From Acidobacteriota bacterium (GTDB lineage Bacteria > Acidobacteriota > UBA890 > WLXD01), in assembly GCA_965205505.1 (NCBI GenBank), contig CBDBHB010000009.1, positions 736,001 through 800,000 of the forward strand: a stretch of DNA of 64,000 nucleotides. Reading direction: 5' to 3'. The position numbers and the translations under genes were made by a program. The notes under the pieces are model-generated. The model ran no database searches and was not told where the DNA came from. It was given only the letters and a program-made list of their open reading frames with translations. Within the stretch, counting starts at the first letter, position 1. Every line of letters begins with the position of its first letter. Positions 5,102 to 59,407 of this stretch are shown here, one piece after another.

Positions 5102-6736
5102 TCATCGAGAAGATTCCGGCCATAGCTCTTTGATCTCGTCGTCATGCCCGGTCATCTCCCAGCGGATCAGCGACACGGGGATCACGCCTGCGGTATAGAA
5201 CTCGTCCATGAACTGTTTCACGGTGAAGTCGTCGCCCAACTGCTGTGCTCGGTCGCGGAACAGCTTCATGAAGTGGACCTTACCGACCACCATTTGCGCA
5301 TGCCAGCCGACATGCACCAGGGTAGTCTGCATCTCACCCCACAGGTGAGGGCTGTCATCGAGCAGTTCCCCGTGCGGCGCATTCGCCACGGCAAACTCCA
5401 TCGCCTCCGTCAGGCTCCAATCCCGACTGTGCATATACACGTCTGCGAGCGCCCTGACCGTGCGAAACGCCGCCTGCTCGTAGGCGACTTCTCGTGCTCT
5501 GCGCGGCCGCTCGTCGAGATAGCCTGCGTGCATGAGTAGCTCCTCGAAAGCGAACGCCAGTCCCTCCAGACGGGCGACCGCCATGTCATAGGGCCCTTCG
5601 TGCTCCCTGGCGCCCCGAATGGGCCGGTCGTCGTGTTGGGCTCTGAGCAGGTCGAAGTGGTGCCCCACCATCTCGTGGGTCTCTTCCATGAGCGATTCGC
5701 GGTGCGAAAAATTGAAGAAGTAGTCGTGCGTTTCGGGCCACGGGCGGCGGGTCGCGCGCAATCGACCCTGCCGATAGTCGTCCACCACGATGTAGTCCTG
5801 AACCGTGAAGATCTCGTCGTCGCGGATGAAGCTCATGACACGCTCGAGGGAGCTCAGGACGCTGCGACGACGCTCCTCCTGCGATGTTACGGGCGTAAGC
5901 GGCGGAAGATTGCGATTGCGGTTTTCCTCGAGCTTCTGGAACGTGATGACGCGATTGTCCTCAAGCTCCACGATCGTCCGAATCTCATCCCAGGTATAGG
6001 GAAACAGATAGACGTTCTTCATCATCCAGTTGTAGTTTTCGACTCCGACCCCGGCTGAAGCGGTCATCTCGCTCCGGTTTCCCTCGAGCCAGTCGAGGTA
6101 GCCGTCGATTGCAGCCTCAGCTGCCTGGGCATCGGGTAGAAGATCGGGATGGTATTCGCCGAGCTGGGCGACGAATTCCGCCAACCGATCATCGCCTTGC
6201 TCGAGCTCATGAATCGCGAGGATTGCGAGGTCACCGGGTATTCGGGATAGGTCGCCGCCACCGAGATTCCCTTTTGCCTGCTCGTAGTATTCAGGGATTG
6301 CCCGCAGCCTCGATTGAAACTCGGCAATGCGCTCACCCTCGATAGGCAGGCCGGGGAGCCTACCCAGGCCGCCCCTGCCGCCGGCGTAGAAAGCGGGATC
6401 ACGCACCCATGGACGCAGAACCCGAAGCTCGAACTCGAGCCCGTTCATCTCGGCACGGACCAGGTGGTAGTCGACCTGATCGGCGACCGACCAGCTGCCT
6501 ATGTCGATCGCCGCCAGGCGACGCTGAAAATCCTGTAGGTTGGCAAACCGGGTCTCCATGGCCGAAGCGTAGCCGGATAGATCGCCGCGGTAATCGTCCT
6601 GCGAGAAGGCGCGAAACTCCTCGAAAAGGCCTGAGAGATCTGCGTAACCAGCACCGTCTTGGCCGGAGACGTCGGAGCCGAGTGCGGCGAGGAGGAAGGA
6701 CAGAAGAACAACTCCGGGAACCGATGCGAGTCTCAT
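5102..6736 (-). CDS. DUF885 family secreted protein (paralog B)
   Basis: Start MRLASVPGVVLLSFLL (signal peptide); AEMNGLEF...RPW, THEMVGHH, EGLAFAFEE; clearly similar to paralog A. Confidence 0.8.
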   Translation of the reverse strand: MRLASVPGVVLLSFLLAALGSDVSGQDGAGYADLSGLFEEFRAFSQDDYRGDLSGYASAMETRFANLQDFQRRLAAIDIGSWSVADQVDYHLVRAEMNGLEFELRVLRPWVRDPAFYAGGRGGLGRLPGLPIEGERIAEFQSRLRAIPEYYEQAKGNLGGGDLSRIPGDLAILAIHELEQGDDRLAEFVAQLGEYHPDLLPDAQAAEAAIDGYLDWLEGNRSEMTASAGVGVENYNWMMKNVYLFPYTWDEIRTIVELEDNRVITFQKLEENRNRNLPPLTPVTSQEERRRSVLSSLERVMSFIRDDEIFTVQDYIVVDDYRQGRLRATRRPWPETHDYFFNFSHRESLMEETHEMVGHHFDLLRAQHDDRPIRGAREHEGPYDMAVARLEGLAFAFEELLMHAGYLDERPRRAREVAYEQAAFRTVRALADVYMHSRDWSLTEAMEFAVANAPHGELLDDSPHLWGEMQTTLVHVGWHAQMVVGKVHFMKLFRDRAQQLGDDFTVKQFMDEFYTAGVIPVSLIRWEMTGHDDEIKELWPESSR

Positions 6737-6865
6737 GATCGCTCCAGTGGCTGTCAATGACCGGCCCGAGAGCCGCTGCGGGTTGTGTGGAGACCGTGTC
6801 TTTCTGTTGACATCTTCGTTTGCAATAGGAACGCTTCCGCTTTGACACAACGAAGGAGGTTGCCG

Positions 6866-7261
6866 ATGAAGAAGCTCGTTCCCGCTTGGCTCGCCGCAAC
6901 GATCACGGCGTTTGCCCTGTCTCTCGTCTGGCACTTGCTGTTGATGGCAGATTTCTACGCCGACCATGCTCAGGCCGTGGCCAGGGCAGAGCCCGACTTC
7001 AGATTCATCATCTTGGGCTACGTCGTCCTCGGCCTTCTCATGGCGATCGCCTATCCAATTGGCTACAAGGGCGGCTCTCCGATCGCCGAGGGGTTTCGCT
7101 TCGGCGCCCTCTTCGGCCTCATTTGGATCCTGCCCTGGTCCTTGATCATCGTCGGGATCTGGAACGTGTCGTTTGCGGGAGTCGCAGTCGATGCTCTCTG
7201 GCACGTAGTCGAAGAAGGAATCGCCGGAATCGCCGTAGCATACGCGTATGGGAAGTCGTAA
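6866..7261 (+). CDS. Small four-helix membrane protein (DUF1761-like)
   Basis: ATG after AAGGAGG; four hydrophobic segments. Confidence 0.7.
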   Translation: MKKLVPAWLAATITAFALSLVWHLLLMADFYADHAQAVARAEPDFRFIILGYVVLGLLMAIAYPIGYKGGSPIAEGFRFGALFGLIWILPWSLIIVGIWNVSFAGVAVDALWHVVEEGIAGIAVAYAYGKS

Positions 7262-7423
7262 TCCTGAGACCGGCTGCGTGACCATGGGCGCGGGTGGCCA
7301 ATAGCCTAGCGAGCGGACGTGAGCCCGGAACACCTCGGTCTGCGACCGGGCGATCGTAGACTTGGCCCGGGCGACAGTCGCCAGCGGTGCACCGTTATCT
7401 GCAAGCTAGCCAAAGGAGGAGCC

Positions 7424-10740: not shown

Positions 10741-11517
10741 ATGGGTGTCATCGGAACGGTGGACAGCCTCTGGCGCTATCCAGTGAAGAGCATGCGAGGC
10801 GAGGAGCTGCACGAGGCGTTCATAGGGTTTTCCGGGGTGTACGGTGATCGTCTGTTCGCCTTTCGCAGCTCCGCTGGCGTCCCGGGCTTTCCCTACCTGA
10901 CGGGTCGAGAGCTCGGAGAGATGCTCCGCTATCGTCCACGTTTCCGGCACCCGGACAAGGCAGTGTGCCCGCCGAATCTGGCCGAAGCCGAGAGCATCGC
11001 GCCCGGCCTGAGCCCCGTCTTCTCCAGCCCGGCGGAACTCATGGTCGATGTCGAGGCTCCCTCGGGAGACCTGTTCGCCATTGACCAGCCCGAGCTATTG
11101 GACATGCTCGGCAACGACACACGTGCGCTGACGTTGCTTCGATCGGAGCGGGCGATGACGGACTGTCGTCCGGTATCGCTCTTCGGTCTGCAGACCGTAG
11201 GCCAGCTCGGCGAGGAGATCGGCTCACCCGTCGACAAGCGATGCTTTCGAGCCAATATCTACGTCGATTTCCAAGGTGCCCAGGGATTCTCTGAAGACGC
11301 GCTTGTCGGACAGTCGCTGCAAATTGGATCCAAGGCCGTGATCTCGATTCTGGAGCGCGATCCGCGCTGCAAGATGATCAGTCTGGATCCCGACACCGGC
11401 GAGTCGAATCCGGAGATCCTACGAAAGGTCGCCCTCTCGCACGATGGCAAGGCCGGAGTCTATGGGGCGGTGCTCGTTGAAGGCATGATCCAAAAGGGCG
11501 ATGTAGTTGTGACCTGA
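10741..11517 (+). CDS. MOSC domain-containing protein
   Basis: LWRYPVKSMRGE, GDRLFA, RCFRANI, RC...DPDTG, GVYGAV. Confidence 0.9.
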   Translation: MGVIGTVDSLWRYPVKSMRGEELHEAFIGFSGVYGDRLFAFRSSAGVPGFPYLTGRELGEMLRYRPRFRHPDKAVCPPNLAEAESIAPGLSPVFSSPAELMVDVEAPSGDLFAIDQPELLDMLGNDTRALTLLRSERAMTDCRPVSLFGLQTVGQLGEEIGSPVDKRCFRANIYVDFQGAQGFSEDALVGQSLQIGSKAVISILERDPRCKMISLDPDTGESNPEILRKVALSHDGKAGVYGAVLVEGMIQKGDVVVT

Positions 11518-11648: not shown

Positions 11649-12866
11649 GTGAGAAAGACACGAGTCGCTGTTGCGCTTACCGTTGCGTTGGCCATCGCCA
11701 TTCCGGCAGTCGCCTAGCTGTGCACGATCGATGCGGTGTCGGCTGCCACGCTCCTACTGCCCTACTTCGAGGTCAACCTCAAGAAACTCGACAGCACCCA
11801 GCAGAAGGAATCGACGCTCTTCTCGATCAACAACGCGAGTGCGGCGCCGACGATTGCCCACGTCGTGCTCTGGACCGACATGTCGATCCCGGCGCTCGCC
11901 TTCGACGTGTTCCTCACCGGATACGATGTGCAGACCATTTACATGGACGACCTGTTCCGCGGCGACATTCCCGGATTCATGTCTGACGGCTGCGTAGGAC
12001 AGCCGGACACGACCACGCTTACCGACGGCGAGCTGCTCGACCTGCGCGACTCGCACATAGGAAACCAGGTGGGCGGCCTCTGCCTCAGCCAGCGGCACAC
12101 CGACCAGATCGCCCGCGGCTATGTGACGATCGACAGTGTCAACAACTGCTCGACGCTCTTCCCCGGCGACAGCGGCTACTTCGGCAGCGGTGGCGTGGCC
12201 ACCGACGACAACGTGTTCTGGGGCGAGTACACGGTGTTCAACACCAAGCGGAAGTACGCCGAGACCGAGCAACTCGTCTCCGTCGAGGCGGCGGCGCCAT
12301 TCGGCACCTCCACCACCGATACCACCTTCGGCCCCGGCTCCTACACTTTCTACGGCCGCTACGTCGACTGGGACGGCAGCGATAACCGCGAGCCGCTGGT
12401 CTCCCCGTGGGGGGCGCGGTACTGGAACCAGGGCAGGAGCAATACCGCGAGTCAGGTAGTCGTGTGGCGCGACTCCGGCTTCGAGCAGCAGCCGTTCGAG
12501 TGCAACTTCAGCCCGGGCGACTTCTGGTATCCGCTGAGCCAGGAAAAGATCCTGATGTACGACGAGGAAGAGCTCGTCGCGGAAGTCTTCGGTGTTCCGG
12601 TGCCGTTCCCTGCCGAGACGCAGCAGGTCAGGGTGGGGAGCAACTTGCTGCCGACCCCCTACTCGGTTGGCTGGTTGTACCTGGACCTGGGGGTCGGCGG
12701 CCAGCCCCTGCAGTCCCACGTCACGGTGCGTCACGCCTTCGTCCACAAGAAGGCGCGGTCCCGTGTGGCCGGCATCGGGGGGCCGCTGTTAAGCGACAAT
12801 GGCGACGGGATAGTCTTCCAAGGCTGTCCCGCGGCGCCCGACTTCTCGGTGTCGGAAACCCGGTGA
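11649..12866 (+). pseudogene. Secreted hypothetical protein (CTIDxVxAATLLLPYFEV-type N-terminus) interrupted by in-frame TAG at 11715
   Basis: GTG 11649 after CAGGAG gives signal peptide MRKTRVAVALTVALAIAIPAVA, then TAG, then LCTIDAVSAATLLLPYFEV in the same frame as ORF 11736..12866. Confidence 0.7.
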
Positions 12867-12912
12867 CCATGACCGGAGGGTCCCGACGCGTACCGAAAGG
12901 TAGATCGACGGA

Positions 12913-14256
12913 TTGAGCCGTTGTCTGCCCGCGTCGCGGCGGCTGCTTTTGGGTCTTCTCGCGATGCTGCTGATCGCTTCGAGTGGCACCGGTCAGGGAA
13001 CCGAAGATCTCGAGTTGGAGTTGATCGGTGCCGGGCTGCCGGATCGTGGACAGTGGCGCAACGGGTTCGACGTTGCCGACATGAACGGCGATGACGCTCT
13101 GGATATCGTTCATGGCCCGCCGCGCGCCGGCGACGGGCGACCGGTCATCTACCTCGGTGACGGCGCTGGCAGCTTCAAGCGCTGGGAAGCGGCCGCATTC
13201 CCGAACCTACCGTACGACTATGGCGACGCCGCGGCCGCCGATTTTGACGGCGACGGCTCCATGGACCTGGCGCTGGCCGTTCATCTCCGTGGGATCGTGG
13301 CGCTGCTCGGCGATGGAGCCGGGAACTTCCGCAGCTGGCGGGACGGGCTCGCACTGGCGGTTCCCGGTGACGGGTCGAGCGCGCGCCCGTTCTCGTCCCG
13401 AGCCATTCACGCCGCCGACTGGAACGGCGACGGCCGTCCGGATCTGGTCGCCCTGGGCGAGGGCCCCGGCCGCGGCGACTTCACCACGCCTGGCACCGGC
13501 GCCGATTCCTCATACGGGATCCGCGTCTGGCTGAACCCCAGCACGCCCTCCAGCAGCTGGCAGTTGGTGACCCCGCCCGATCCGGAAAAGTCGGTGTTCG
13601 GCGACTCTCTTGCGGTTGCCGACCTCAACGGCGACGGTCGGCTCGACCTGGTGACCGCGTCGCAGATCTACTCGCGTCGCGACATCGTGAACTTCGGCCG
13701 CCAGGATGACGGTTGGACCGTCATCGATGTGACCGCTCTGCCCCGGCGGGCGTATGTGTCGCCCGTCGCCGCGACCGATCGTGACGGCGATGGCAGAAGC
13801 GAGCTTGCCGTCGCCTCCTTGCGGCTACGGGCCGGGGATTGGGTGAGTCGTATCGACGTGCTGGCATGGCAGTCGGGCAGAGGGTTTTCCAGTCATCTGG
13901 TGGCGGAGTTGGTGGACCGGGGTGGCTTCGCGGGCCTCGCCTGGGGCGACCTGAACGGAGACGGCGCCAGCGACCTGGTGGCCGCGCACGCTTCCGGCGC
14001 CGTTTGGATCTTCGTCGGCGACGATGCCGGCGGGCTAACCTGGGCGCGCGCCCCCATGCTGGGATCGGCTGGTGAGGTCTGTAAGGGCTATCACGTGAGG
14101 CTCGCAGATCTCGATGGCGACGGCCGCGACGAGATCATCGCCGCCTTCGCCGGTGAGCCGCCGCCTCCAGCCGCTGCACTGACCGGCTCGTCAACGACGG
14201 CCGGGTGCGTCTCGGGCGGCAGCATCCGTGCGTGGAGATTGCGGCTCGAGCAGTAG
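12913..14256 (+). CDS. FG-GAP/VCBS repeat secreted protein
   Basis: Signal peptide plus about seven DxNGDGxxDL-type repeats. Confidence 0.88.
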   Translation: MSRCLPASRRLLLGLLAMLLIASSGTGQGTEDLELELIGAGLPDRGQWRNGFDVADMNGDDALDIVHGPPRAGDGRPVIYLGDGAGSFKRWEAAAFPNLPYDYGDAAAADFDGDGSMDLALAVHLRGIVALLGDGAGNFRSWRDGLALAVPGDGSSARPFSSRAIHAADWNGDGRPDLVALGEGPGRGDFTTPGTGADSSYGIRVWLNPSTPSSSWQLVTPPDPEKSVFGDSLAVADLNGDGRLDLVTASQIYSRRDIVNFGRQDDGWTVIDVTALPRRAYVSPVAATDRDGDGRSELAVASLRLRAGDWVSRIDVLAWQSGRGFSSHLVAELVDRGGFAGLAWGDLNGDGASDLVAAHASGAVWIFVGDDAGGLTWARAPMLGSAGEVCKGYHVRLADLDGDGRDEIIAAFAGEPPPPAAALTGSSTTAGCVSGGSIRAWRLRLEQ

Positions 14257-14368
14257 CCCCGCCAAAGGCGGCTACCGGTCATGGCTCGTCCGAATCCGCC
14301 CGGCGCAGCGCCCGCGCCGACCGACTATTCTCACAATCTCGTCGATACTCCGAGCCAAGGAAATTCCC

Positions 14369-17134
14369 ATGCGAGCCAAGTTCGCACCGCTCCCGTGCGT
14401 CACCGCACTTTCCACGTTGCTCCTAATCATCTCTGTCGCCAGCGATGCCCCAGCGCAGCAGCTCTCGGAGCAGTTTCTGGAGCGGGTCCATTACCGGGAG
14501 ATCGGCCCGACGCGCCAGGGGGGGCGCATCGTCGACCTGGCAGTTCCCGACCGCACCAAGCAGCCGTATACCTTCTACGTCGCGGCGGCGAACGGCGGTC
14601 TATGGAAGACCACCAACAACGGGCAAACTTTCGCGCCCATCTTCGACGATCAGAACGTCATCGCCATGGGCGCCGTTGCGGTTGCTCCTTCGGAGCCGGA
14701 TGTTGTCTGGGTCGGCACCGGCGAGGCCAACAACAGCATCACGGATCCGTATGCCTCGTACTGGGGCGACGGTGTCTACAAGTCGACGGACGGCGGTGCG
14801 AGCTGGGCGAACATGGGTCTGGGCGACACGCACCAGATCGGCCGCATCGTCGTTCATCCGCAAGATGCGGACGTCGTCTACGTGGCGGCGCTTGGCCACC
14901 TGTACTCCGACAATGCCGAGCGGGGCGTGTTCAAGACCGACGACGGAGGCGTTACCTGGGCCCAGGTATTGAAAATCACCGAGGGTGATCGGCACATCAG
15001 CGTGGTCGACCTGGTGATGAGCCCGCAGGATCCGGAAGTGCTCTACGCCGCCGCGTATGACCGCGCCGCCACCCCGTGGATGTTCCGTCAGGGCGGCCCG
15101 GCGGGTGGCATCTACAAGACCACCGACGGGGGTGCGACCTGGACGAAGCTGGACGGCCTGCCGCCGGGCGATATCGGCCGGATCGGGCTGACGATCTCGC
15201 CGCGGAACCCCGAGATTCTCTACGCCAGCGTCCTGCTGCCGGGTGATTCGCAGGAGCCGGAGCGCCGGTACGAAAACTGGGTCTACCGCACCGACGATGC
15301 CGGTGAAACGTGGCTACGGACGCACTCCGAGCCGCTCGTGGGTGGCTCCTATTTCGGCCAGATCCGCATCGATCCGAACGACCCGGAGCACGTCTACGTG
15401 CTTGCCTTCGGCAATCAGCATTCCGTTGACGGGGGTCGAACCTGGAGCCTCGCCTTCCGCTGGGGCGGCGACAACCATGCGCTGTGGATCGATCCGAGCG
15501 ATTCTCGGCACATGCTGCTCGGATACGACTACGGCATGGCGATCACCTACGACTCCGGCGACAACTGGTACCACCCCGACGAGCTGCCCCTGGCACAGTT
15601 CTACGGCATCTGTACCGACATGGCGTATCCGTACAACGTTTACGGAGGAACACAGGACTTCGGGACGTGGAAGGGTCCGAGCACCAAGAAGGGTCGCTTC
15701 CCGATCCGTTTCGAGGATTGGGAGCACATGCTCGGGGGGGACGGGTACTTCTGTCAGGTCGACCCGACGAACAACCGATGGCTGTACGCGGAGTCGCAGA
15801 ACGGCTCGCTGTCGAAGGTCGACATGCGGACGGGAAGGCGCAAGGGCATTCGGTATCGAGGTTCCGATCTGCGCTTCAACTTCGATGCGCCGCTGCTCAT
15901 CTCGCCGCACAACAGCGATGTCATCTATCACGGTGCCAACGTGCTGCTGCGCTCCGCCTTCCAGGGCGAGAACTGGGAGGCCATCAGCCCGGATTTGACC
16001 ACCAACGACCCGCAGCGCCGCGATGTCGGACCGCTCGCCTACAGCACCCTCACCACGTTGGATGAGTCGCCGGTGCAACAGGGAGTGATCTGGGTCGGCA
16101 CCGACGACGGCAACGTGCAGCTCACCCGCGACGGGGGCGAGAGCTGGGAGTTGCTCAACGACAGCATCGTGGGCAACCCCGGGTACTGGGTTTCGAGCGT
16201 GGAGGCGTCCCACCACGACGCCGGCACGGCCTTCGTCGCCTACTTTGGCAGGCGGCGCGACGATTTCCGGCCGTTCGTGTTCAAGACGACCGACTTCGGC
16301 GCTACCTGGACGGAGATCGTCGACGGCCTGCCCAACGATGAGCCGATCAACGTGGTGGTCGAGGACCACAAGAATCCGAACCTGCTGTTCGCCGGCAGCG
16401 AGAAGGCTGTCTACGTGAGCATCGATGGCGGCGCTCACTGGGCGCGAATGCAGAGCAACATGCCCAGCGTCGGCGTCCACGACCTGGTGATTCACCCACG
16501 CGAGAACGATCTCGTCGTCGGCACCCACGGACGTGGCTTCTTCATCGCCGACATCTCGCCGTTGCAGGAGCTCGACCCCGAGTTGATGGCGAGTGACGCG
16601 CATCTGTTCGACATAGAGCCCGAGGTTCAGTGGGTCATGCCGTCGCAGCGGGCCGTCAGCGCCCAGAACTTCGCCGGCGAGAACGAGCCGTATGGGGTGG
16701 TCATCAACTACTATCTCCGCGAGGCTGTCGCAGGCGGTGGGAGCGTTCGAATCTACGAAGGCATCCGGCTGATCAATGAGCTCAGCGTCACTGCAGACGC
16801 CGGGTTGAACCGCGCCATCTGGCCAATGACGTGGCGGCAGCCACGGTCGCCTGAAGCGATCGCCCGGTGGGATCGGCGTCAGGAGTTTGGCGCCCGGGAT
16901 CCGCAGTTCTTCGACTACTACGACACGGTGGATTTCTACGGCGACCCGAATGAAGAGGTCACCGCCGACGGCATGTCGATGCGCACCAGGGTGGACGATG
17001 CGGGCCCAACCGAGCGTGATTACAGGTATTTTCGCGTCCAGCCAGGCACCTACCGGATTGTTCTCGAAGTCGTCGGAGAACAGCTGCAGGGACAGGCCGA
17101 GATCCTCGTGGACCACTGGTTCGAGCGCCGCTGA
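14369..17134 (+). CDS. VPS10/sortilin-like BNR-repeat (glycosyl hydrolase-like) secreted protein
   Basis: REIGPTRQGGRI, many SxDGGxTW Asp-box repeats, VYGGTQD, GTHGRG. Confidence 0.9.
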   Translation: MRAKFAPLPCVTALSTLLLIISVASDAPAQQLSEQFLERVHYREIGPTRQGGRIVDLAVPDRTKQPYTFYVAAANGGLWKTTNNGQTFAPIFDDQNVIAMGAVAVAPSEPDVVWVGTGEANNSITDPYASYWGDGVYKSTDGGASWANMGLGDTHQIGRIVVHPQDADVVYVAALGHLYSDNAERGVFKTDDGGVTWAQVLKITEGDRHISVVDLVMSPQDPEVLYAAAYDRAATPWMFRQGGPAGGIYKTTDGGATWTKLDGLPPGDIGRIGLTISPRNPEILYASVLLPGDSQEPERRYENWVYRTDDAGETWLRTHSEPLVGGSYFGQIRIDPNDPEHVYVLAFGNQHSVDGGRTWSLAFRWGGDNHALWIDPSDSRHMLLGYDYGMAITYDSGDNWYHPDELPLAQFYGICTDMAYPYNVYGGTQDFGTWKGPSTKKGRFPIRFEDWEHMLGGDGYFCQVDPTNNRWLYAESQNGSLSKVDMRTGRRKGIRYRGSDLRFNFDAPLLISPHNSDVIYHGANVLLRSAFQGENWEAISPDLTTNDPQRRDVGPLAYSTLTTLDESPVQQGVIWVGTDDGNVQLTRDGGESWELLNDSIVGNPGYWVSSVEASHHDAGTAFVAYFGRRRDDFRPFVFKTTDFGATWTEIVDGLPNDEPINVVVEDHKNPNLLFAGSEKAVYVSIDGGAHWARMQSNMPSVGVHDLVIHPRENDLVVGTHGRGFFIADISPLQELDPELMASDAHLFDIEPEVQWVMPSQRAVSAQNFAGENEPYGVVINYYLREAVAGGGSVRIYEGIRLINELSVTADAGLNRAIWPMTWRQPRSPEAIARWDRRQEFGARDPQFFDYYDTVDFYGDPNEEVTADGMSMRTRVDDAGPTERDYRYFRVQPGTYRIVLEVVGEQLQGQAEILVDHWFERR

Positions 17135-44047: not shown

Positions 44048-44779
44048 GTGAGCAGGCGGCGGGCGAGTATCGGTCGGGTGATCATGCCGTGCCTGCTGGC
44101 GGTGAGTATGGTCGGTACGGTCGCCGATTCGGCCGGCGGTATGGAGGAGTATCGGGCGATCGATGGAAGTGGCAACAGCTACCTGAAGCCTGATCGTGGC
44201 GCGGCGGGAACGTACCTGATGCGGCTCGCGGGCCATGCGTATGCCGATCTGATGTCGGAGCCATCGGGTCCCGACCGACCCAGCGCGCGCGAGATCTCCA
44301 ACGAGGTAGCGCAACAGACGAAGCTCGCCTTGAACCACGCTCGCGGCACCGACTACATGTGGTTGTGGGGGCAGTTCCTCGACCACGACATCGATCTGTC
44401 GCCCGAAATGGGCCCCAAAGAGCCATTTCCTATCAAGGTCCCGGTAGGCGACCCGCATTTTGACCCCGCCAGAACCGGCACGCAGGTGATCGGTTTGAAT
44501 CGCAGCATCTACGACACCGGCACAGGCCAAACACGCAACAACCCGCGTCGGCAGACGAACATGATCACGGCGTGGATCGATGCCTCCAACGTCTATGGCT
44601 CCAGTCGCTCCCGCGCTGATGCCCTTCGCCGCCACAATGGGGATGGCCTGCTGAAGACGAGTGCGGGCGATCTATTGCCGTTCAACACCGCCGGCCTCGA
44701 TAACGCCGGTGGGCCCGGCCCGGCACTCTTCCTGGCGGGGGACGTGCGCGCCAACGAGCAGGTGGGGTTGACGGCACTG
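44048..44779 (+). pseudogene. Animal-type heme peroxidase, N-terminal fragment
   Basis: YRAIDGSGN, REISN, WGQFLDHD, IDASNVYGS, AGDVRANE; similarity stops before the expected HxxFxREHN. Confidence 0.85.
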
Positions 44780-44940
44780 CCGCGGTGGTGCTGCCCGGTA
44801 AGTTGCTGGCATCCGACCTCGCCGTGCGCACCGAAGGGCGGCCGCTTCGCAGCGGCGTGTCCTCGGGGCGAAGGTAGCTGGGCCCACGGTATGGCCATCC
44901 CGGCGGAGTACTACCTGGATGAGAAGCACTACTTGAACGC
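44780..44940 (+). pseudogene. Possible N-terminal fragment of a Rieske oxygenase alpha subunit
   Basis: GMAIPAEYYLDEKHY resembles the LPxxxYxD motif preceding Rieske domains; no CxH motif follows. Confidence 0.35.
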
Positions 44941-45030
44941 CGGACCTGAAGTCGGGACGACCCGCAGCGCAAGCCCCAGCAGGGACGCTCCGACGGCGGT
45001 CGGCGCTTGCTTGACTACGACAGGTCGGAT

Positions 45031-45969
45031 CTACGGTGTCGACTTCAGGAACACGCCCTCCTGAAGATCTCGGTACGCTTGGGCGAGCTCGGCACGGGTG
45101 TTCATGACGATCGGGCCGCGCCAGGCGACCGGCTCCTGCAGTGGCTTGCCGGACACGAGCAGGAAACGGAGCCCCTCCTCACCCGATTGCACAACGATCT
45201 CGTCACCGCGGTCGAAAAGCACCAATGAACGGTTGTCGGCGTGGACCACCGGCGTTCCGGTAGCTTCACCCTCGAGCATCGCCTCGCCGTTGTCCACGGC
45301 CACCCATTCGGTCGGAGCCGCCAGCGGATCCGACGCATTGAGAAACTGTCCGTCTCCGGCGAACACGTAGGCGAACGCGTGGCGCTGCGTTTCGACCGGA
45401 ATTCGCTTCTTGGTGTTCGGTGGGATCGATACGTCGATATAGTGCGGATCAGTGGCGATTCCGTCTACCGGACCTGTTGCTCCCCAAACGTTGCCGCAGA
45501 TCACGCGCACCTTGGTGCTGTCGTCGTCGACCACCTCGGGGATATCAGCGGACTTGATGTCCTGATAGCGGGGTGGCGTCATTTTGAGCGCGCGCGGCAG
45601 GTTCGCCCAAAGTTGGAACCCATGCATGCGCCCGTCGGCGTCGCCCTTGGGCATCTCCTGGTGGATGATGCCGCTGCCCGCTGTCATCCATTGGACGTCG
45701 CCCGGCGCAATCGCGCCCGAGTTGCCGAGGCTGTCGCCGTGATCCACGGTGCCCGCCAGCACGTAGGTGATCGTCTCGATGCCGCGGTGTGGGTGCCACG
45801 GGAATCCCGCAAGGTACTCTTCGGGCACATCGTTGCGGAAATCGTCGAGCAGCAGAAACGGGTCGAAGTCGTCGGTCTTGCCAAAGCCGAAGGCGCGTCG
45901 CAAGTGTACGCCGGCGCCCTCGATGTGCGGAGCGGCGCTGACGAGGTTTTTCACGGGCCGTATCGACAT
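45031..45969 (-). CDS. Pirin family protein
   Basis: DPFLLLD, GFPWHPHRGIET, QWMTAGSGIIHQE, GPIVMN. Confidence 0.95.
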   Translation of the reverse strand: MSIRPVKNLVSAAPHIEGAGVHLRRAFGFGKTDDFDPFLLLDDFRNDVPEEYLAGFPWHPHRGIETITYVLAGTVDHGDSLGNSGAIAPGDVQWMTAGSGIIHQEMPKGDADGRMHGFQLWANLPRALKMTPPRYQDIKSADIPEVVDDDSTKVRVICGNVWGATGPVDGIATDPHYIDVSIPPNTKKRIPVETQRHAFAYVFAGDGQFLNASDPLAAPTEWVAVDNGEAMLEGEATGTPVVHADNRSLVLFDRGDEIVVQSGEEGLRFLLVSGKPLQEPVAWRGPIVMNTRAELAQAYRDLQEGVFLKSTP

Positions 45970-52988: not shown

Positions 52989-53051
52989 ATGATATGCCAG
53001 TTATCATAAGAAATGTCATGAAATCTATTTCGTGACATTCTTGATATATCA
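52989..53051. promoter_or_regulatory. AT-rich TA promoter with palindromic operators
   Basis: AATGTCATGAAAT-CT-ATTTCGTGACATT (53012-53039, 12/13 arms), ATGATA-N7-TATCAT (52989-53007), TGATATATCA (53042-53051). Confidence 0.7.
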
Positions 53052-53058
53052 TGGGGAT

Positions 53059-53355
53059 ATGAGCGACTCGGTTACGAAGATCGGAAAGGGTGGCCGCGTG
53101 GTCATCCCTTCAAGACATCGGAAGGCGCTGGGAATCGAAGAGGGGCAACAGGTCATCGTGAGCCTCGATCGTGACGGAATCTGGATCAGAACTCCCGAGC
53201 AAGCAGTGGCACACGCTCAAAGTCTGGTGCGTGAGCATGTTGGCAAGGGCAAGAGCCTTGTCGACGAGTTGCTCCGTGAGCGCCGCCGCGAGGCGCTTGG
53301 TGACGATGCGTCAGACGTCCCGCGTCCGCGGTCGGATAACTCGCGTCGGCGATGA
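53059..53355 (+). CDS. AbrB/MazE/SpoVT family antitoxin (VapB-type)
   Basis: KIGKGGRVVIPSRHRKALGIEEG...SLVDELLRERR; ATGA overlap with the toxin gene. Confidence 0.9.
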   Translation: MSDSVTKIGKGGRVVIPSRHRKALGIEEGQQVIVSLDRDGIWIRTPEQAVAHAQSLVREHVGKGKSLVDELLRERRREALGDDASDVPRPRSDNSRRR

Positions 53356-53735
53356 GCTCGCCGGTCTTGGACGCCTCGGCGGTGCTTGCGTTGCTCAACG
53401 ACGAACCCGGTGCTCACGAGGTGGCGAACACGCTTCCGGGGGCCCTGCTGTCGACGGTGAATCTCGCCGAGGTCGCTGGCAAGCTCGTCGACCACGGGAT
53501 GGCGGACAACGCGCTACGAGCGGCGCTAGGTGGGCTGGGGCTCCGTATCGTGAAGTTCGACGAGGAGCTGGCGTACCGGGCGGGCTCACTCCGGCGTTCG
53601 ACGCGCCGTGCGGGCCTGGCCCTCGGCGATCGGGCCTGTCTATCGGTTGGCCAGGAGCTGGAGTGCACCGTCCTGACCGCAGATCGGCGTTGGTCCGAGC
53701 TGGATCTCGGGATCGATATCCGGGTTATTCGCTAG
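53352..53735 (+). CDS. vapC: VapC/PIN domain toxin
   Basis: VLDASAVLA, VNLAEV, LGDRACL, LTADR. Confidence 0.93.
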   Translation: MSSPVLDASAVLALLNDEPGAHEVANTLPGALLSTVNLAEVAGKLVDHGMADNALRAALGGLGLRIVKFDEELAYRAGSLRRSTRRAGLALGDRACLSVGQELECTVLTADRRWSELDLGIDIRVIR

Positions 53736-53776
53736 CCGCTTTTCCCGTCGGTGCCGCCGACGCTGCTGGGCGTCAA

Positions 53777-54283
53777 TTATCGATCTTCGGGGTTATCTGA
53801 CCGCGCCGCGTTATCGAGCTCGATGAGGCGCTCCTCGATGCCGACATCCTTGGAGACCGGCTCGCCGAGGATGCGGTGCTCCATCGACTCCAAAGCGCGG
53901 GCTGCCAGTCGGTCGCGCACCCGCTCGATGTGGGCGGTGCTCTGGTGCGCCGAGAACAGCCGCTTCTCCAGGTTGGCAAGAGCGATCTCAGCGTTCCAGC
54001 GTTGGCTTGGCCACCGGAGCAACAGGTCTCGACCTGCGGCCGCGAGCACGACGGTCATCCCGACGAAGATCCACAAGACTGCAGCCAGCGCGATGTCGAC
54101 TGCTCCGCCGTCGAAGGGCGCCCGGGTGGCCGACCACACGATGCGGAATCCACTGAGTGCCGCATAGAGCAGCGCCGCGATCGCGATGATCGCCCAGGCG
54201 ACGAAGGTGCTCATCAGCACGCAGGCAGTCTTCGGGCCAGCCTCCGCAAGGTAGTGCTCGACCAAACGTCTGAGAGCCATCAT
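53777..54283 (-). CDS. Hypothetical membrane protein (two TM segments plus coiled-coil-like tail)
   Basis: Hydrophobic segments in ORF 53777..54448; start inferred. Confidence 0.5.
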   Translation of the reverse strand: MMALRRLVEHYLAEAGPKTACVLMSTFVAWAIIAIAALLYAALSGFRIVWSATRAPFDGGAVDIALAAVLWIFVGMTVVLAAAGRDLLLRWPSQRWNAEIALANLEKRLFSAHQSTAHIERVRDRLAARALESMEHRILGEPVSKDVGIEERLIELDNAARSDNPEDR

Positions 54284-54429
54284 GGTCGGGCTACTTTTAT
54301 CCCCTCGATGGGCCAGAACAAGCCCTGGCGGCGCGATGGCCTGTGGAATGAAAGCTCCGCCTCGGTTGGCTAAGAACGCGAGTCCCCGCCGACCGACGAA
54401 GGACGAGGTACCGAACGGAGGCCGACGTG

Positions 54430-54705
54430 ATGGCGCAGTCTGCATCAACCACTCGAGCTCGAATCACTCTCGCACTGGGCGCGCTGGGGCTCATGCTCGC
54501 CTTTACTGCCTCATCGTTGGCACAGCGACCTCCGGGCGGAGGGTTGCACTTCGGTCCGGTGACCGACGCTCAGTATCGCGACGGTGGCCAGTTCAACGCC
54601 GATGCGGTCGAGCTCGGTCGACTGCTGTTTTTCGACCAGATTCTCAGCGGCAACGGCAATATCTCGTGCGCTACCTGCCACAACCCTGCCACCACGGCCT
54701 GCTAA
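54430..54705 (+). pseudogene. Di-heme cytochrome c peroxidase/MauG family, N-terminal fragment
   Basis: GGAGG RBS, signal peptide, VELGRLLFFDQILSGNGNISCATCHNP, then stop; second heme domain absent. Confidence 0.85.
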
Positions 54706-54729: not shown

Positions 54730-56622
54730 GTGAACCGACTGCGCGCGGTTTTGCGGGGCGCCCCGTTGCTTGCTCCCCGAATCGCGGGTACATTCGCGAG
54801 CCGATTGCTAACTCGCTACGCGGAGGGCTCCGGAATGTCGACGATGGGGGCGCGAGCGGCATCGGTCACGATGCTGGCGAGCGCGTTACTGACTGCTGGA
54901 GCACAAGGCCAGTCCGGGTCTCGGGAGGGCGCCACCATCGTTGCCCGCGAGGGCGAACGTTACTGGGAGCATGTGGTCGAGCGCAGCCTCTACCAGCGCC
55001 TGACGCTCGGGTTGCCGATCGAATCGCTCGACTATCCGACCGCGGCCGCCGCTGAGCGCTCGGCCGCCTTCGCCCGTTCGTTGCTACAGCGGCTCGATGC
55101 GGTGGATGTCGCGGCGCTATCGCACGCGGATGTTCTCAACCTCGAGACGCTGCGCTGGTTAGCTCAAAGTCTCGCCGACTCGGCGCCGTTCTATTGGTTT
55201 GGATTCGAGGTCACGCCCTACTCCTCGCCCCTGCCTGAGCTGCGACAGGCGCTGCTGTCCCGGCCGCTGGCGACACGGGAGGGCCGGGATCGATATCTGA
55301 GGCTGCTCGACGAGGCCGTGGAGTTCATCGACTCGTTGCATGCACGGCTCCGCGGGCAGGCGAATCGGGGGATTCGCGTACCGTTGCCCGAGCTCGACAC
55401 GGTGGTTCCGTTCGTCTCGGCGATGATCTCTGAGGGGTCGAGCAGCCCGTTCGGTGTTCACCGGGATCGGCTCGCTACCGTAGATGACGCCGAGTCCGAC
55501 GCGTTCCTCGCCGCGGTGGACGTCGGTATCGTCGAAGCGAATCGGGCGCTCCGTGAGATCGTCGAGCTGGTGGATGGAGCCGAGTACCGCAACGCGGCGC
55601 CGGTGGGGGTTGGGGCCTGGCAGTTTCCTGGCGGCGAAGATTGGTACCGGCACTCGGTGCGCCAGCGTACGACGCTCGACATAACGCCCGAGGAGGTTCA
55701 CGAGATCGGCGTCGAAGAGGTCGCGCGCATCGACTCGACAATGGCCACGCTACGCGACGATCTGGGCTATGAGAGCACCAAAGCCGACTTTCTCAGCTTT
55801 CTCAGGCCCGATCCGCGCTTCTTCCCCGAGACACCACAGCAGATCCATGACGTGTTGATGGGCTACGCCAATGAGATGGAGGACCAGCTGGACTCGATGT
55901 TCCTGCGTCGTCCCGAGGCGCCGTATGGGGTCAAGCGCCTCGAGCCGGAGCGTGGGCCCGGCATGACCTTCGGAACCTACGAGGTACCTACTCCCGCCGA
56001 GCCGACCGGCTACTACCGATACAACGGCTCCCAGCTCGACGAGCGCTCGATGCTCTTCTTCCAGGCGCTCACCTACCATGAGCTCGTGCCCGGCCACCAT
56101 TTCCAGATGAGCTTGCAGGCGGAGAACGCCGGACTGCCCGACTTCCGTCGCTTCTCGTCGTTCGACGCGTTCACCGAGGGATGGGGTGACTACGCCTCGT
56201 CGCTAGGGATCGAGGCCGGGCTCTACGATGACCCCTACGATGCCTACGGTCGCCATTCGATGGACATGTTCATCTCCGTGCGACTCGTGGTCGACACCAA
56301 CGGAATGAACCTACTCCGCTGGCCGCGCGCGCGTGCCACCCGGTACATGCTCGACAACGTGATCGAATCGGAGACACAGATCGCCAGCGAGACACTGCGT
56401 TACGCGGTCGACATGCCCGGCCAGGCGCTGGCCTACAAGGTGGGATCCCAGCTTTTCTGGGATCTGCGCCGCCGCGCCGAGCAAGCGCTGGGCGACCGCT
56501 TCGATCTGGCGCGTTTCCACGACGCGATCCTGAGTCAGGGCTCCATGCCGTTGCAGGTGCTCGAGCAGCATGTCGCCTGGTTCATCGAGCAGGAGCAGGG
56601 CGAGGGCGGCGCGATTGAATAG
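54730..56622 (+). CDS. DUF885 family protein (canonical type)
   Basis: YHELVPGHHFQ, FTEGWGDY, RLVVDT, PGQALAYKVG, FHDAIL. Start may be 54835. Confidence 0.92.
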   Translation: MNRLRAVLRGAPLLAPRIAGTFASRLLTRYAEGSGMSTMGARAASVTMLASALLTAGAQGQSGSREGATIVAREGERYWEHVVERSLYQRLTLGLPIESLDYPTAAAAERSAAFARSLLQRLDAVDVAALSHADVLNLETLRWLAQSLADSAPFYWFGFEVTPYSSPLPELRQALLSRPLATREGRDRYLRLLDEAVEFIDSLHARLRGQANRGIRVPLPELDTVVPFVSAMISEGSSSPFGVHRDRLATVDDAESDAFLAAVDVGIVEANRALREIVELVDGAEYRNAAPVGVGAWQFPGGEDWYRHSVRQRTTLDITPEEVHEIGVEEVARIDSTMATLRDDLGYESTKADFLSFLRPDPRFFPETPQQIHDVLMGYANEMEDQLDSMFLRRPEAPYGVKRLEPERGPGMTFGTYEVPTPAEPTGYYRYNGSQLDERSMLFFQALTYHELVPGHHFQMSLQAENAGLPDFRRFSSFDAFTEGWGDYASSLGIEAGLYDDPYDAYGRHSMDMFISVRLVVDTNGMNLLRWPRARATRYMLDNVIESETQIASETLRYAVDMPGQALAYKVGSQLFWDLRRRAEQALGDRFDLARFHDAILSQGSMPLQVLEQHVAWFIEQEQGEGGAIE

Positions 56623-56705: not shown

Positions 56706-57689
56706 ATGACCGCTACCCATGCCATACGAATCCACGAGTACGGCGGACCGGAGGTGCTTACCTGGGAGGAGGTCGAGCTTCCCGAGGTCGGTCCTGGCGA
56801 GGCGCTTGTTCGGCATACGGCGATCGGGCTGAACTATATCGATACCTATCATCGATCGGGCCTCTATCCGGTTGCTGAGCTACCGGCCGTGCTTGGGGTC
56901 GAGGCGGCGGGCATCGTCGAGGCGGTCGGCGAGGGCGTAGAGCACATCGCAGTGGGTGATCGGGTAGCGGAGGGAACCGCGTCGGGCGCCTACAGCGAGC
57001 GCCGCGTGTTGGCGGCCGAGCACCTCGTCAAGCTGCCGGCCGATGTCGATGACGAGCAGGCGGCAGCGATCATGCTCAAGGGCTTGACCGCTCGCATGTT
57101 GTTGCGCCAGACGTACTGTGTCGAGCCTGGCGACACGGTGCTGGTTCACGCTGCCGCCGGTGGCGTTGGCACCATTCTCTGTCCCTGGGCCAAGGCGCTC
57201 GGGGCCACCGTCATCGGCACCGCCGGCACCGATGAGAAAGCGGCAATGGCGGCGGCGAACGGCTGTGACCACACCATCGTCTACACGCGTGAGAGCTTCG
57301 CCGAGCGCGTTGCCGACATCACCGAAGGGAACGGCGTCCAGGTGGTCTACGACGGTGTCGGCAAGGTGACCTTCGACGAGTCGCTCGAATGCCTGGCACA
57401 CAACGGACTAATGGCGAGCTTCGGAAACGCGTCGGGGGCTGTCGAGCCGTTCAGCATCCTGCGGCTGCTTCCCAAGGGTCTCTACCTGGCGCGCCCGTCG
57501 ATGTCCAGCGAGATCATTCCGGGCGAGGGGCTACGTCCTGCCGCCACCGAGCTATTCACTGCGGTTGCCGACGGCATAGTCACCCCCACCATCGGGGTGC
57601 GATTCCCGCTGGCGGAGGTCGCCGCCGCCCACCGGTCGCTGGAGTCACGCGGCACGACCGGCTCGACTGTCCTGCTGCCGCATCTCTGA
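56706..57689 (+). CDS. qor: NADPH:quinone oxidoreductase (zeta-crystallin family)
   Basis: GGPEVL, IGLNYID, HAAAGGVG, VYDGVGK, FGNASG, TTGSTVL. Confidence 0.93.
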   Translation: MTATHAIRIHEYGGPEVLTWEEVELPEVGPGEALVRHTAIGLNYIDTYHRSGLYPVAELPAVLGVEAAGIVEAVGEGVEHIAVGDRVAEGTASGAYSERRVLAAEHLVKLPADVDDEQAAAIMLKGLTARMLLRQTYCVEPGDTVLVHAAAGGVGTILCPWAKALGATVIGTAGTDEKAAMAAANGCDHTIVYTRESFAERVADITEGNGVQVVYDGVGKVTFDESLECLAHNGLMASFGNASGAVEPFSILRLLPKGLYLARPSMSSEIIPGEGLRPAATELFTAVADGIVTPTIGVRFPLAEVAAAHRSLESRGTTGSTVLLPHL

Positions 57690-57729
57690 GCGAGCGCGCC
57701 GCTGCAGGGTGGAGATGGGCTGGCCCCTC

Positions 57730-57769
57730 TCGCCACCACCGTGTAGATGGGGCCAACGATGTCGGCCAC
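57730..57769 (-). repeat. Degenerate direct repeat of the acetamidase 3' end (partner at 58462-58501)
   Basis: 34/40 identical by manual alignment; encodes VADIVGPIYTVVA versus VANIVDPIYTVVA. Confidence 0.9.
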
Positions 57770-57788
57770 TGTCTTGGTGACGGTTGCG

Positions 57789-57817
57789 CATCATAAGTAT
57801 GATGAAATATACATACT
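57789..57817. promoter_or_regulatory. TA operator palindromes
   Basis: CATCATA-AG-TATGATG (57789-57804) overlapping AGTATG-N10-CATACT (57796-57817) in an AT-rich patch. Confidence 0.7.
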
Positions 57818-57855
57818 AACTATTCTTATTCCGTGTGCGACCAACTGAGGCTCCC

Positions 57856-58071
57856 ATGCGAAAGAAGCGCATCACGGTAACCGTCGACCCGGATATCGCC
57901 GACTACCTGGACTCGGTGCCCAACAAGAGCCGGGTCGTTTCCGAGGCGGTGCGAAGCTACAGCACTGCAGAGCTCGAGCTCCAGCTCCAAGACGCGTATC
58001 GCAGAGACCACGAGGACGCCTCCCGGCTCGCCGCGGAATGGGAGCCGGCTGACGCCGCGGTCGAGGAATGA
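57856..58071 (+). CDS. Ribbon-helix-helix antitoxin
   Basis: MRKKRITVTVD...NKSRVVSEAV; acidic tail; ATGA overlap with the toxin gene. Confidence 0.82.
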   Translation: MRKKRITVTVDPDIADYLDSVPNKSRVVSEAVRSYSTAELELQLQDAYRRDHEDASRLAAEWEPADAAVEE

Positions 58072-58427
58072 AGCGTGTGCTCGAGCGCGGCGACGTCGTG
58101 CTCGTCAGACTCGATCCCGCCGAAGGTAGGGAGATCCGGAAGACGCGTCCCGCCGTGTTGGTGTCGAACGGCGCCGCGTGTCGTTTCGACGCGGTGCTCC
58201 AGGTGGTCCCGGTGACGGCACTTCGCGATCGGCCCCTCCGGCCTTACGAGGCGCAGCTCGGTTCATCTCAGTGCGGGCTCGCGAAACTTTCTCGTGCGGT
58301 CGCCAATCAGCTTCGAACTGTTACCCGGCAGCGCGTCATCGATCGCCTGGGTAGGCTGACGCCGACGGAGCTCAGAGCAGTGGATCAAGCTGTCTCCATC
58401 CAGCTCGGCCTCTGGCGCGCGCCCTGA
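58068..58427 (+). CDS. mazF: PemK/MazF family endoribonuclease toxin
   Basis: RGDVVLVRLDPAEGREIRKTRPAVLVSN, VVPVT, QLRTV. Confidence 0.93.
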   Translation: MKRVLERGDVVLVRLDPAEGREIRKTRPAVLVSNGAACRFDAVLQVVPVTALRDRPLRPYEAQLGSSQCGLAKLSRAVANQLRTVTRQRVIDRLGRLTPTELRAVDQAVSIQLGLWRAP

Positions 58428-58432
58428 GGAGG

Positions 58433-59407
58433 CTACTTCGGTAGATACCGCTTGGGGAACTTCGCTACTACCGTGTAGATCGGGTCGACGATGTTGGCCA
58501 CCGAGCTCTCGCCGAGCTCTCCGACGAGATGGTACGCGTCCCAGCGGTCGAAGCCGTAGTCGGCTTCGAGCCACTCGATGAGCTCGACGTGGGCGAGCCG
58601 AAACGCATCGATCAGCGGCCGGGCGCTGCCGGCGACCATGATGTACTCGTCGTCCTCGAGCCGAGGCCAGTCGATACCGGTGTCCTTGATCAGGTCGATG
58701 CGCAGCACCACGTCCATCGCCGTCTCCAGCCCGGTGCCGTTGACCTCGCCCTCGCCTTGGCGGGCGTGACCGTCGCCGAAGTAGAAGTACGCGCCTTCGT
58801 GGAACACCGGTAGGTATACGGTGGTTCCCGGGGACACCTCCTGGGCGTCGAGGTTACCGCCGAAGTCGCCCGGCCAGAGGCCGGCGAATGCCTCCTCGCC
58901 ACGCGGGGCCACTGCAACCCGGCCGAGCATCGGCTTGAGGTCGATGGTGATGCCGCCGCTCTCGCTGTTGGGCAGGTCAACGGTGCCGGTCATCGCCTCG
59001 CGATCGAGCCGCCACTCATAGCGCCGAAACGGAATCGGGTCGTTGAGCAGCCGCAGCCGGGAGTCGCTAGCGAGGCCGCCGAAGCCAGGACTTATCTGCG
59101 CCCCCGCAGTGTCCATGTTGGGCATGACCTCGATGATCTCGACGACCAGCGTGTCCCCCGGCTCCGCTCCCTCGACGTAGAACGGGCCCACCTCGCCAGG
59201 GAAAGCCCCGCCGCCCGGCTCGTAGTAGGGGCCGTTGTTGGTGCGCGAGTGCAGCTCGGTGTTCGGCTGTATGAGCAGCACCGGCTCACGCACCGCGAAC
59301 GTCGGGTAACCGACGGTGGGCTCGAAGTGGACGACTTCTTGCCCCAACGCCGTAGCCGGCAACACGATTAGCAGGGCCAATAGGGTGAGCGAGACAGCGT
59401 TACGCAT
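58433..59407 (-). CDS. Acetamidase/formamidase family protein, secreted
   Basis: GPFYVEGAEPGD, PMLG, GGNLD, GDGHARQGEGE..GTGLE. Confidence 0.92.
   Translation of the reverse strand: MRNAVSLTLLALLIVLPATALGQEVVHFEPTVGYPTFAVREPVLLIQPNTELHSRTNNGPYYEPGGGAFPGEVGPFYVEGAEPGDTLVVEIIEVMPNMDTAGAQISPGFGGLASDSRLRLLNDPIPFRRYEWRLDREAMTGTVDLPNSESGGITIDLKPMLGRVAVAPRGEEAFAGLWPGDFGGNLDAQEVSPGTTVYLPVFHEGAYFYFGDGHARQGEGEVNGTGLETAMDVVLRIDLIKDTGIDWPRLEDDEYIMVAGSARPLIDAFRLAHVELIEWLEADYGFDRWDAYHLVGELGESSVANIVDPIYTVVAKFPKRYLPK

Follow-up and report, generated by a model that had tools for sequence, protein, structure and literature searches.

What does it mean when a small toxin-antitoxin (TA) cassette is bracketed by two diverged copies of the end of an adjacent protein-coding gene? 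The question is raised by a stretch of 64,000 nucleotides from an Acidobacteriota bacterium (GenBank assembly GCA_965205505.1, contig CBDBHB010000009.1, positions 736,001 to 800,000; the whole stretch is hereafter the window), in which a mazEF-like cassette stands between the quinone reductase gene qor and an acetamidase/formamidase-family gene. Direct repeats at 57730-57769 and 58462-58501, identical at 34 of 40 positions and spaced 732 bp apart, enclose an AT-rich stretch, an antitoxin open reading frame (ORF), a PemK/MazF ORF and the last nine codons and stop of the acetamidase gene, as an earlier reading of the DNA (the original prediction) had described. The cassette appears best explained as an ordinary chromosomal type II TA islet, long resident in this clade at the junction of qor and the acetamidase gene and repeatedly lost by imprecise deletion. 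We consider it probable, at roughly 60%, that the repeat is the scar of one additive RecA-type recombination that returned the cassette from a relative by way of homology in the acetamidase gene.

Both 40-mers lie in the acetamidase reading frame on the minus strand. Four of their six mismatches are synonymous third-position changes, in agreement with the original prediction, a share that is not significant taken alone (P = 0.09), and the other two are replacements (N>D, D>G). Similarity is lost sharply at both edges of the repeat, the gene's final nine codons are missing after the copy on the qor side (the dead copy), and the longest identical run shared by the dead and live copies is 11 bp. 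In a self-BLAST of the window the pair ranks third among non-self matches (E = 4.5e-5), behind two stronger matches that are pairs between paralogous DUF885 genes. That the repeat reflects chance similarity or an assembly artefact is scarcely credible: the match is short, lies in DNA of 65% GC and is known from an assembly only, but it attains its E value window-wide while being in frame and adjacent to the gene, and nothing comparable occurs in 79 control loci. An assembly duplicate would, moreover, be near-identical, and the DNA flanking the dead copy matches another species.

A scan of species-representative genomes with the acetamidase as query gave 163 relatives, the best 80 of which were used as loci. 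Three of the 80, all in Acidobacteriota metagenome-assembled genomes (L001, L002 and L003), are syntenic with qor, at mean synonymous divergences (dS) to the window of 0.71, 0.52 and 0.20, respectively. In the sister genome L003 the cassette occupies the same position, at 91% DNA identity and with a single copy of the 40-mer; a second copy may have been lost there by later deletion. Between the window and L003, the dS of the cassette is 0.17, compared to 0.20 for ten neighboring genes, and the cassette has therefore been inherited together with those genes since the two lineages split, with no recent foreign arrival. L001 and L002 have no cassette and one copy of the 40-mer each, and the gap between qor and the acetamidase gene measures 72 bp in L001, 88 bp in L002, 670 bp in L003 and 743 bp in the window. 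Thus, alleles free of the TA pair exist, and the second full acetamidase paralog at 57.7 kb that the original prediction had set out as a contrary outcome is absent; none of the three relatives has a second acetamidase gene at the junction. The TA pair stands alone between genes that are neighbors in relatives, is present in one of the three syntenic relatives and has left remnants in the other two. Among the 80 acetamidase loci MazF was seen in one, and nowhere else beside that gene in the set.

The cassette-free alleles are themselves informative. The 3' extremity of mazF is kept in both gaps, as 14 of 14 bp in L001 (p = 0.0008) and 20 of 24 bp in L002 (p = 0.0004), with empirical p values taken against real GC-matched DNA. 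The remnant in L002 is as far from the acetamidase stop as its counterpart in the window, and the three coding differences of the L002 remnant are all at third positions. A four-residue tail after QLGL is the norm of the MazF family (82 of 110 sequences parsed from 118 homologues, 41 of them ending in P), and the retained piece therefore most likely belongs to mazF itself, and not to host DNA that is read through. Putatively, the ancestors of all four genomes had mazF beside the acetamidase gene, and at least two losses followed, by imprecise deletion rather than clean excision, and the L001 and L002 junctions look like deletion scars rather than untouched sites. The empty sites that the original prediction had suggested looking for in relatives were accordingly found in part, with one 40-mer copy and no cassette, but with the end of mazF left behind. 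In L001, the 55 bp from the acetamidase stop to the mazF remnant (10976-11030) have a short inverted repeat at their bounds and are unrelated to the DNA of the window or L002.

The identity of the dead copy is suggested by the DNA beyond it. A 40-bp segment on its qor side, here termed X, matches the cassette-free gap of L002 (25/40 ungapped, empirical p = 0.004; 20/30, p = 0.016; gapped, p = 0.0095), at a Jukes-Cantor (JC) distance of 0.52 that equals the window-L002 dS of 0.52, as neutral DNA inherited since that split would show. Because X matches the cassette-free gap of L002, the qor side of the window would trace back to an L002-like allele without the cassette, and the dead 40-mer probably represents the displaced gene end of such an allele. 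The original prediction that the dead copy is the displaced original is supported by this match. The dead tail is unmatched in the intergenic DNA of L001 (p = 0.39 to 0.70), and X is unmatched in the mazF end of either the window or L003 (p = 0.44 to 0.999). Other origins were tried and rejected. The dead tail taken as the decayed live last codons followed by the end of mazF gave p = 0.24 to 0.25; X taken as decayed MazF coding sequence, in a frameshift-tolerant back-translated profile, was suggestive by eye but not supported (p = 0.57 for L002 and 0.30 for the window, with a positive control at p = 0.002); and the short spacer of L003 taken as a remnant of the dead segment gave p = 0.95. Around the dead copy, folding z-scores of -1.1 to +0.2 over seven stretches gave no sign of a hairpin or of an element like the repetitive extragenic palindromes, Rfam had no match at E ≤ 1 in 57400-58700, and the window holds no tRNA or tmRNA.

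These comparisons bear on the possibility that the repeat arose in cis, by tandem duplication of the gene end and cassette, after which the second cassette was largely deleted, with no donor required. The age of the dead 40-mer fits the window-L003 split, the dead and live copies share a position-18 state with L003 against L001 and L002, and internal deletions that spare the end of mazF do occur at this locus, as L001 and L002 attest. Such a duplication, however, predicts about 90% likeness to the window's own downstream DNA, and the dead tail is unlike it (p = 0.24 in the local test; 0.44 to 0.999 in the others) and resembles L002 instead, which leads us to regard an origin in cis as quite unlikely.

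The dead copy matches L001 to L003 at 32 to 34 of 40 positions. Four of the six dead-live differences are private to it, and two of them fall at residues invariant in 119 of 119 parsed homologues, which argues for decay after displacement rather than divergence under selection. Release of the copy at the window-L003 split predicts 3.8 private changes, compared to 8.8 (P = 0.043) for the L002 split and 11.4 (P = 0.005) for the L001 split. The four observed fit the window-L003 split, and the repeat is therefore younger than the presence of the cassette at the locus. The view that this is no fresh target-site duplication is upheld.

The qor gene is two codons longer in the window than in L001 to L003, its native stop being gone at the junction. 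The L003-window alignment ends at 57777, and the qor stop of L003 lies about 15 bp beyond. In L002, two short imperfect tandem repeats stand just beyond the qor stop (10969-11000). The window lineage might have lost its native stop (57680-57689) through a deletion between repeats of this kind. This end of the locus also bears on the same event run in reverse, in which a cassette-bearing, L003-like chromosome took up a cassette-free fragment (qor end, X and acetamidase end) anchored in qor. A clean replacement would then remove an addictive cassette, only the additive product would survive, and the dead copy would be the incoming piece. The resulting structure would be identical, no gain of the cassette would be needed as it was co-inherited with L003, the qor stop is altered exactly at the junction, and in the text of PMC13617665 most validated TA systems are addictive. 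Yet qor in the window resembles that of L003 right up to its final codons (over the last 250 bp it differs by 8.8% from L003 and by 16% from L002), no L002-like tract runs through it, the donor would have to be an unsampled close relative, and the affinity of the live gene end with L001, described below, would go unexplained. We therefore consider the reversed direction unlikely.

In the reading that we prefer, the starting point is that relatives have both kinds of allele, one bearing the cassette (L003) and one lacking it (L001, L002). The ancestor of the window would have had a cassette-free, L002-like junction. A fragment from a cassette-bearing relative, comprising the acetamidase 3' end, mazF, the antitoxin and their promoter, would have entered the cell and been joined by host homologous recombination through the acetamidase gene, either after circularization and a single crossover or by homology-facilitated illegitimate recombination (HFIR) with a nonhomologous joint at about 57770-57776. 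The incoming end would have completed the gene while the resident end was shifted 732 bp away. The displaced end has since decayed, with four private changes and the last nine codons lost, which would lock the cassette in place. An element-encoded or helper recombinase would be unnecessary. Three features of a single-anchor event are present, namely, an anchor in the acetamidase gene, an abrupt joint at 57770-57776 and a duplicated 40-mer followed by DNA of the cassette-free type. We infer the event itself, together with its direction, donor and pathway.

There is experimental precedent for such a product. As described in PMC3240628, a nonreplicating gene-end fragment in E. coli produced end duplications of 109 to 950 bp by single crossover in 56 of 60 clones and by HFIR in the other four, and transformation is reported to generate duplications (PMC3784515). 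The likeness would lie in a gene end that integrates RecA-dependently along with foreign DNA and so duplicates that end, with joints often lacking microhomology. The difference is that the account in PMC3240628 concerns laboratory E. coli under selection, while the event proposed here would be natural, old and decayed, with about 40 bp of duplication visible (about 100 bp originally, by our estimate), and is known from sequence alone.

The live gene end may differ in ancestry from its surroundings. The live 40-mer agrees with L001 at 38, L003 at 37 and L002 at 36 of 40 positions. Over the last 69 bp of the acetamidase gene, the window agrees with L001 at six sites and with L002 at one, against a background of 326 and 562 in flanking genes (Fisher p = 0.012), which hints weakly that this piece leans to a different, L001-like lineage. 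The original prediction of a replacement end from a related genome finds a degree of support in that lean, and its appeal to homology-assisted recombination coincides with the mechanism that we prefer. The codon contrast on which it drew is real, with GTG GTG at the valine codons of the dead copy and GTA GTA in the live one, but fails as an argument for a foreign live end: GTA at the second valine is found in L001 and L003 also, the live copy matches the relatives better (36 to 38 of 40) than does the dead copy (32 to 34 of 40), and the live end is not obviously foreign.

A second instance of homologous exchange may lie close by. At about 53400-54300, identity to L003 drops from about 95% just upstream to 71 to 76%, where L003 and L001 are 87% alike. 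This divergent tract (about 53400-54700) begins inside vapC and falls to 57 to 71% identity to L003 beyond 54300; an ORF at 53777 is 71% identical to both L003 and L001, those two being 87% alike. The tract looks like homologous replacement from an unsampled lineage, giving a chimeric antitoxin-toxin pair. Lying 3 to 4 kb away, it suggests that this lineage takes up divergent homologous DNA in the neighborhood. The vapC gene belongs to a second TA pair (53032-53735), with an AbrB-type antitoxin, a PIN/VapC toxin and its own AT-rich promoter, which occurs in L003 and not in L001 and has no flanking repeat. A di-haem cytochrome c peroxidase gene at 54427-54705 is cut to 92 codons, compared to 466 amino acids (about 1.1 kb more) in L003.

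Several observations weigh against a return of the cassette by recombination. Microhomology of 3 to 10 bp at the joint is usual in HFIR, though not obligatory, and by eye there is none obvious at this joint, which is old. The match of X to L002 is a short one among four targets tested, and an initial local shuffle test put it at p = 0.044; its mismatches are not transition-rich, and X tested as decayed MazF sequence gave p = 0.30 to 0.57. The lean toward L001 comes from one small stretch, several of its sites are perhaps private to L002, and the same count with L003 gives 4 versus 3. The syntenic relatives number only three, at one genome per species, and a strain-level empty site is lacking. 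Finally, the transfer may have run in either direction, and L003 may once have carried the dead copy.

We also asked whether the unit behaves as an att-site element. Between the repeats it holds just the two TA genes. No recombinase, integrase or transposase family was found by Pfam in the 52 ORFs of the window, several of which have no family at all, nor were such families found in 124 ORFs downstream of the acetamidase gene at 68 distant loci (ORFs picked by codon score and cut to 340 amino acids). The absence of the repeat from the cassette-bearing L003 counts against att repeats at every integrated copy, and cassette-free L001 and L002 have one 40-mer copy, yet keep 14 to 24 bp of the mazF end. 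Nor would excision give back a whole gene, as the dead copy runs on into 82 unrelated codons in place of a tail whose K-F-P motif is found in 119 of 119 parsed homologues. A second copy of the gene end was sought at 79 of the 80 loci (L042 lacks the C terminus; 71 had at least 800 bp downstream), with none convincing: 16 loci had short matches of 15 to 45 bp at E = 1e-5 to 0.009, where the window as control gave E = 2.5e-8. The direct matches of 18 to 20 bp about 0.5 kb downstream in L053 and L065, the latter inside an intact dehydrogenase ORF, were counted as chance. The sole TA-like neighbor among the distant loci is a small ORF of DUF433, which we take to be a TA-associated family, about 2.1 kb downstream of the acetamidase gene in L031 (13111-13353). 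A dif/Xer site at the operator palindrome, suggested by its dif-like layout, was rejected; the palindrome is not conserved in L003 and the GC skew of the window has no switch.

An att-site element is thus not shown, and the att-like site of the original prediction fares poorly against an L003 cassette that has no repeat and an excision that would leave the gene broken. Its mobile minimal islet likewise fails to agree with cassette-free alleles that keep the mazF 3' end and with the lack of any other acetamidase locus that has MazF, a convincing second end or an adjacent integrase. A live satellite of 0.73 kb, excising as a circle and integrating with trans-acting help at an att site within the acetamidase gene, would account for the length of the unit, the gene-restoring geometry and the lack of cargo besides the cassette. 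It is nonetheless very unlikely, given that L003 has no repeat, that MazF occurs at 1 of 80 loci and never elsewhere beside an acetamidase gene, that the longest exact run is 11 bp and that recombining the copies swaps the invariant K-F-P...Y-L-P tail for 82 unrelated codons antisense into qor.

An alternative hypothesis is that the cassette is what remains of a larger integrase element (a prophage, integrative mobilizable element or island) that used the acetamidase 3' end as its target, in the manner of e14 at icd, and eroded to its addiction module. The geometry is that of icd-e14-icdC as presented in PMC13626634, with an intact gene on one side, a diverged C-terminal fragment on the other and synonymous differences between them, and PMC13617665 proposes that mobile elements erode step by step until a TA-only islet is left. 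Eroding prophages are treated in PMC6379469, which adds little here. The e14 prophage, however, is 15 kb long, and its SOS-induced, site-specific excision leaves a working enzyme, while the unit here is 0.73 kb, has no recombinase and on excision would destroy the C terminus. Merely 7 bp separate the dead copy from the cassette, mazF was here before the repeat arose, and there is no integrase in the window or in the 124 ORFs beside acetamidase genes. Furthermore, MazF matches in 93 plasmid and 28 phage records are all below 60% identity (the closest about 42% for plasmids and about 34% for phages), and a plasmid or phage source of the cassette was rejected on those grounds. We hold out little prospect for this explanation of the repeat, though an integrase element may well have been the route by which the cassette first arrived in the clade. 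Runs of identity of 11 bp are below the length that RecA needs. Because no identical run between the copies exceeds 11 bases and recombination between them would destroy the C-terminal tail, the unit now looks locked. The coordinates of the features are collected in Table 1.

Table 1. Features of the qor-acetamidase junction, in window coordinates
Feature	Position	Strand	Basis
qor, NADPH:quinone reductase, left flank	56706..57689	+	NF008024, E = 3e-104; C termini compared
X, 40 bp homologous to L002 cassette-free intergenic DNA (10934-10973), absent from L003	57680..57719		25/40 ungapped
10 bp at the expected place of the displaced gene's last nine codons, stop and next bases; putative deleted remnant	57720..57729		Gapped alignment to L002
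Dead copy, 13 acetamidase codons (probable displaced gene end), two replacements at invariant positions	57730..57769	-	Sequence comparison
7-bp junction, dead copy to cassette	57770..57776		L003 alignment stops at about 57777
AT-rich promoter/operator region (putative operator role); palindrome with 7-bp arms at 57789-57804	57777..57855	+	GC minimum; palindrome read from sequence
Antitoxin ORF, 71 aa, probably ribbon-helix-helix type	57856..58071	+	4-bp overlap with mazF start; 92% identical in L003
PemK/MazF-family endoribonuclease toxin, 119 aa, intact	58068..58427	+	PF02452, E = 7.9e-20; 89% identical in L003
Y, last six codons of mazF, stop and 3 bp; piece kept in cassette-free L001 and L002	58407..58430	+	Sequence match
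Acetamidase/formamidase-family gene, 324 aa, intact; right flank, homology anchor	58433..59407	-	PF03069, E = 5.4e-24; 91-95% identical in L001-L003
Live copy of repeat, within acetamidase gene	58462..58501	-	Sequence comparison

The cassette has the makings of a conventional type II module. Its toxin matches PF02452 at 71.5 bits (cut-off, 23.1) over profile positions 1 to 108 of 109 and finds full-length structural matches in MazF9 (6kys, E = 6.6e-16) and EndoA (4mdx, E = 3.5e-11). Residues R27 and T50, presumably the catalytic Arg and Thr, are invariant among 28 aligned sequences. The antitoxin is less readily placed. It matches NF050104 (MazE-family antitoxin) at E = 1.9e-5 and 24.9 bits, under the 65-bit cut-off, has no Pfam family above cut-off and had a single, nonsignificant match in the PDB; its homologue P0242 resembles Acidobacteriota clusters of 71 amino acids and a CopG/RHH_1 cluster (score 0.91, 36% of members). 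The antitoxin's own cluster, P0241, occurs on 8 contigs. Compared to PemK toxins of the MazF9 and EndoA (YdcE) type, the pair is alike in the full-length match and in an overlapping operon with the antitoxin first, and differs in an antitoxin below family cut-offs; RNase activity, neutralized by the upstream protein, is predicted for the toxin. We therefore take mazEF-like to be a fair label for the pair, while the name MazE would go beyond the evidence. The 60-mers at 57771-57850 have 33 to 37% GC, compared to 65% overall. This putative promoter/operator region had no consensus sigma-70 site at the threshold used; it is found in L003 too, though diverged.

Other features of the region were noted in passing. 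The acetamidase-family protein and its homologues have a hydrophobic, signal-peptide-like N-terminal stretch by eye (59340-59407), which suggests an exported enzyme. L001 has an insert of about 3.3 kb between qor and DUF885 (12199-15332) with an ORF of 603 amino acids, by eye like a winged-helix/TPR regulator, and one of 399 amino acids; L002 holds the end of the first of these from 12149 and then reaches its contig end, and neither the window nor L003 has the insert. The DUF885 gene of L001 carries an internal deletion. In the window, two tandem DUF885 paralogues at 3375-7333 are the source of the strongest self-BLAST matches, and a third DUF885 gene lies at 54730-56622. An ORF at 44048-45064 has an animal haem peroxidase domain (PF03098, E = 1e-46) covering the first 226 of 530 profile positions, in a bacterial genome.

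The locus finds its closest company among known TA islets. In the text of Belot et al. 2026 (PMC13617665), recombinase-free, TA-only islets lie between conserved genes and are patchily distributed; they disappear by deletion, leaving remnants, and come back at the same site, and their proposed means of spread is homologous recombination in the flanking genes. The insert here is alike in holding only a TA pair and no mobility gene, in its patchiness and in its deletion remnants. The route in that text is a double-crossover replacement with no duplicated gene end, whereas here an additive product would have kept the displaced end; the term "direct repeat" is absent from its main text. In the hotspots free of mobile genetic elements described by Oliveira et al. 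2017 (PMC5635113), recombination drives turnover between core genes, and our locus resembles them in gene turnover between conserved flanks without an integrase and perhaps in mosaic flanking genes; it differs in that one cassette turns over, in too few genomes for the label of hotspot. In the open-licence literature, supplements aside, we found no description of a TA-only insert flanked by a displaced protein-gene end. The locus appears to work like an additive, homology-driven integration and would belong with the recombinase-free TA islets.

Recombinase-free TA islets and single-crossover duplications of gene ends are both already known. The return of TA islets to fixed places without mobility genes has been argued mostly from presence and absence, and this locus seems to have kept the junctions of such a return. 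With the cassette deleted in two lineages and apparently regained in the window, where part of the former gene end still stands, it would be a dated fossil at one address, read from three relatives and short alignments. There is a caution in it as well: when two diverged pieces of a gene end enclose a small cassette, they are not necessarily att sites. Being a single event, old and now locked, in a lineage without cultured members, the case serves as a useful example rather than a new system, and would gain weight if such scars proved common beside TA islets across genomes. We speculate, as an improbable but consequential extension, that the gene end and TA pair form a recurrent, recombinase-free mobile unit of about 0.75 kb that circularizes, homes to the acetamidase 3' end by a RecA single crossover or a helper integrase in trans and re-invades deleted alleles, with addiction favoring the additive product. 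If this were true, a displaced piece of gene end next to a TA islet would serve as a general signature by which the regain of chromosomal TAs at fixed addresses could be searched for.

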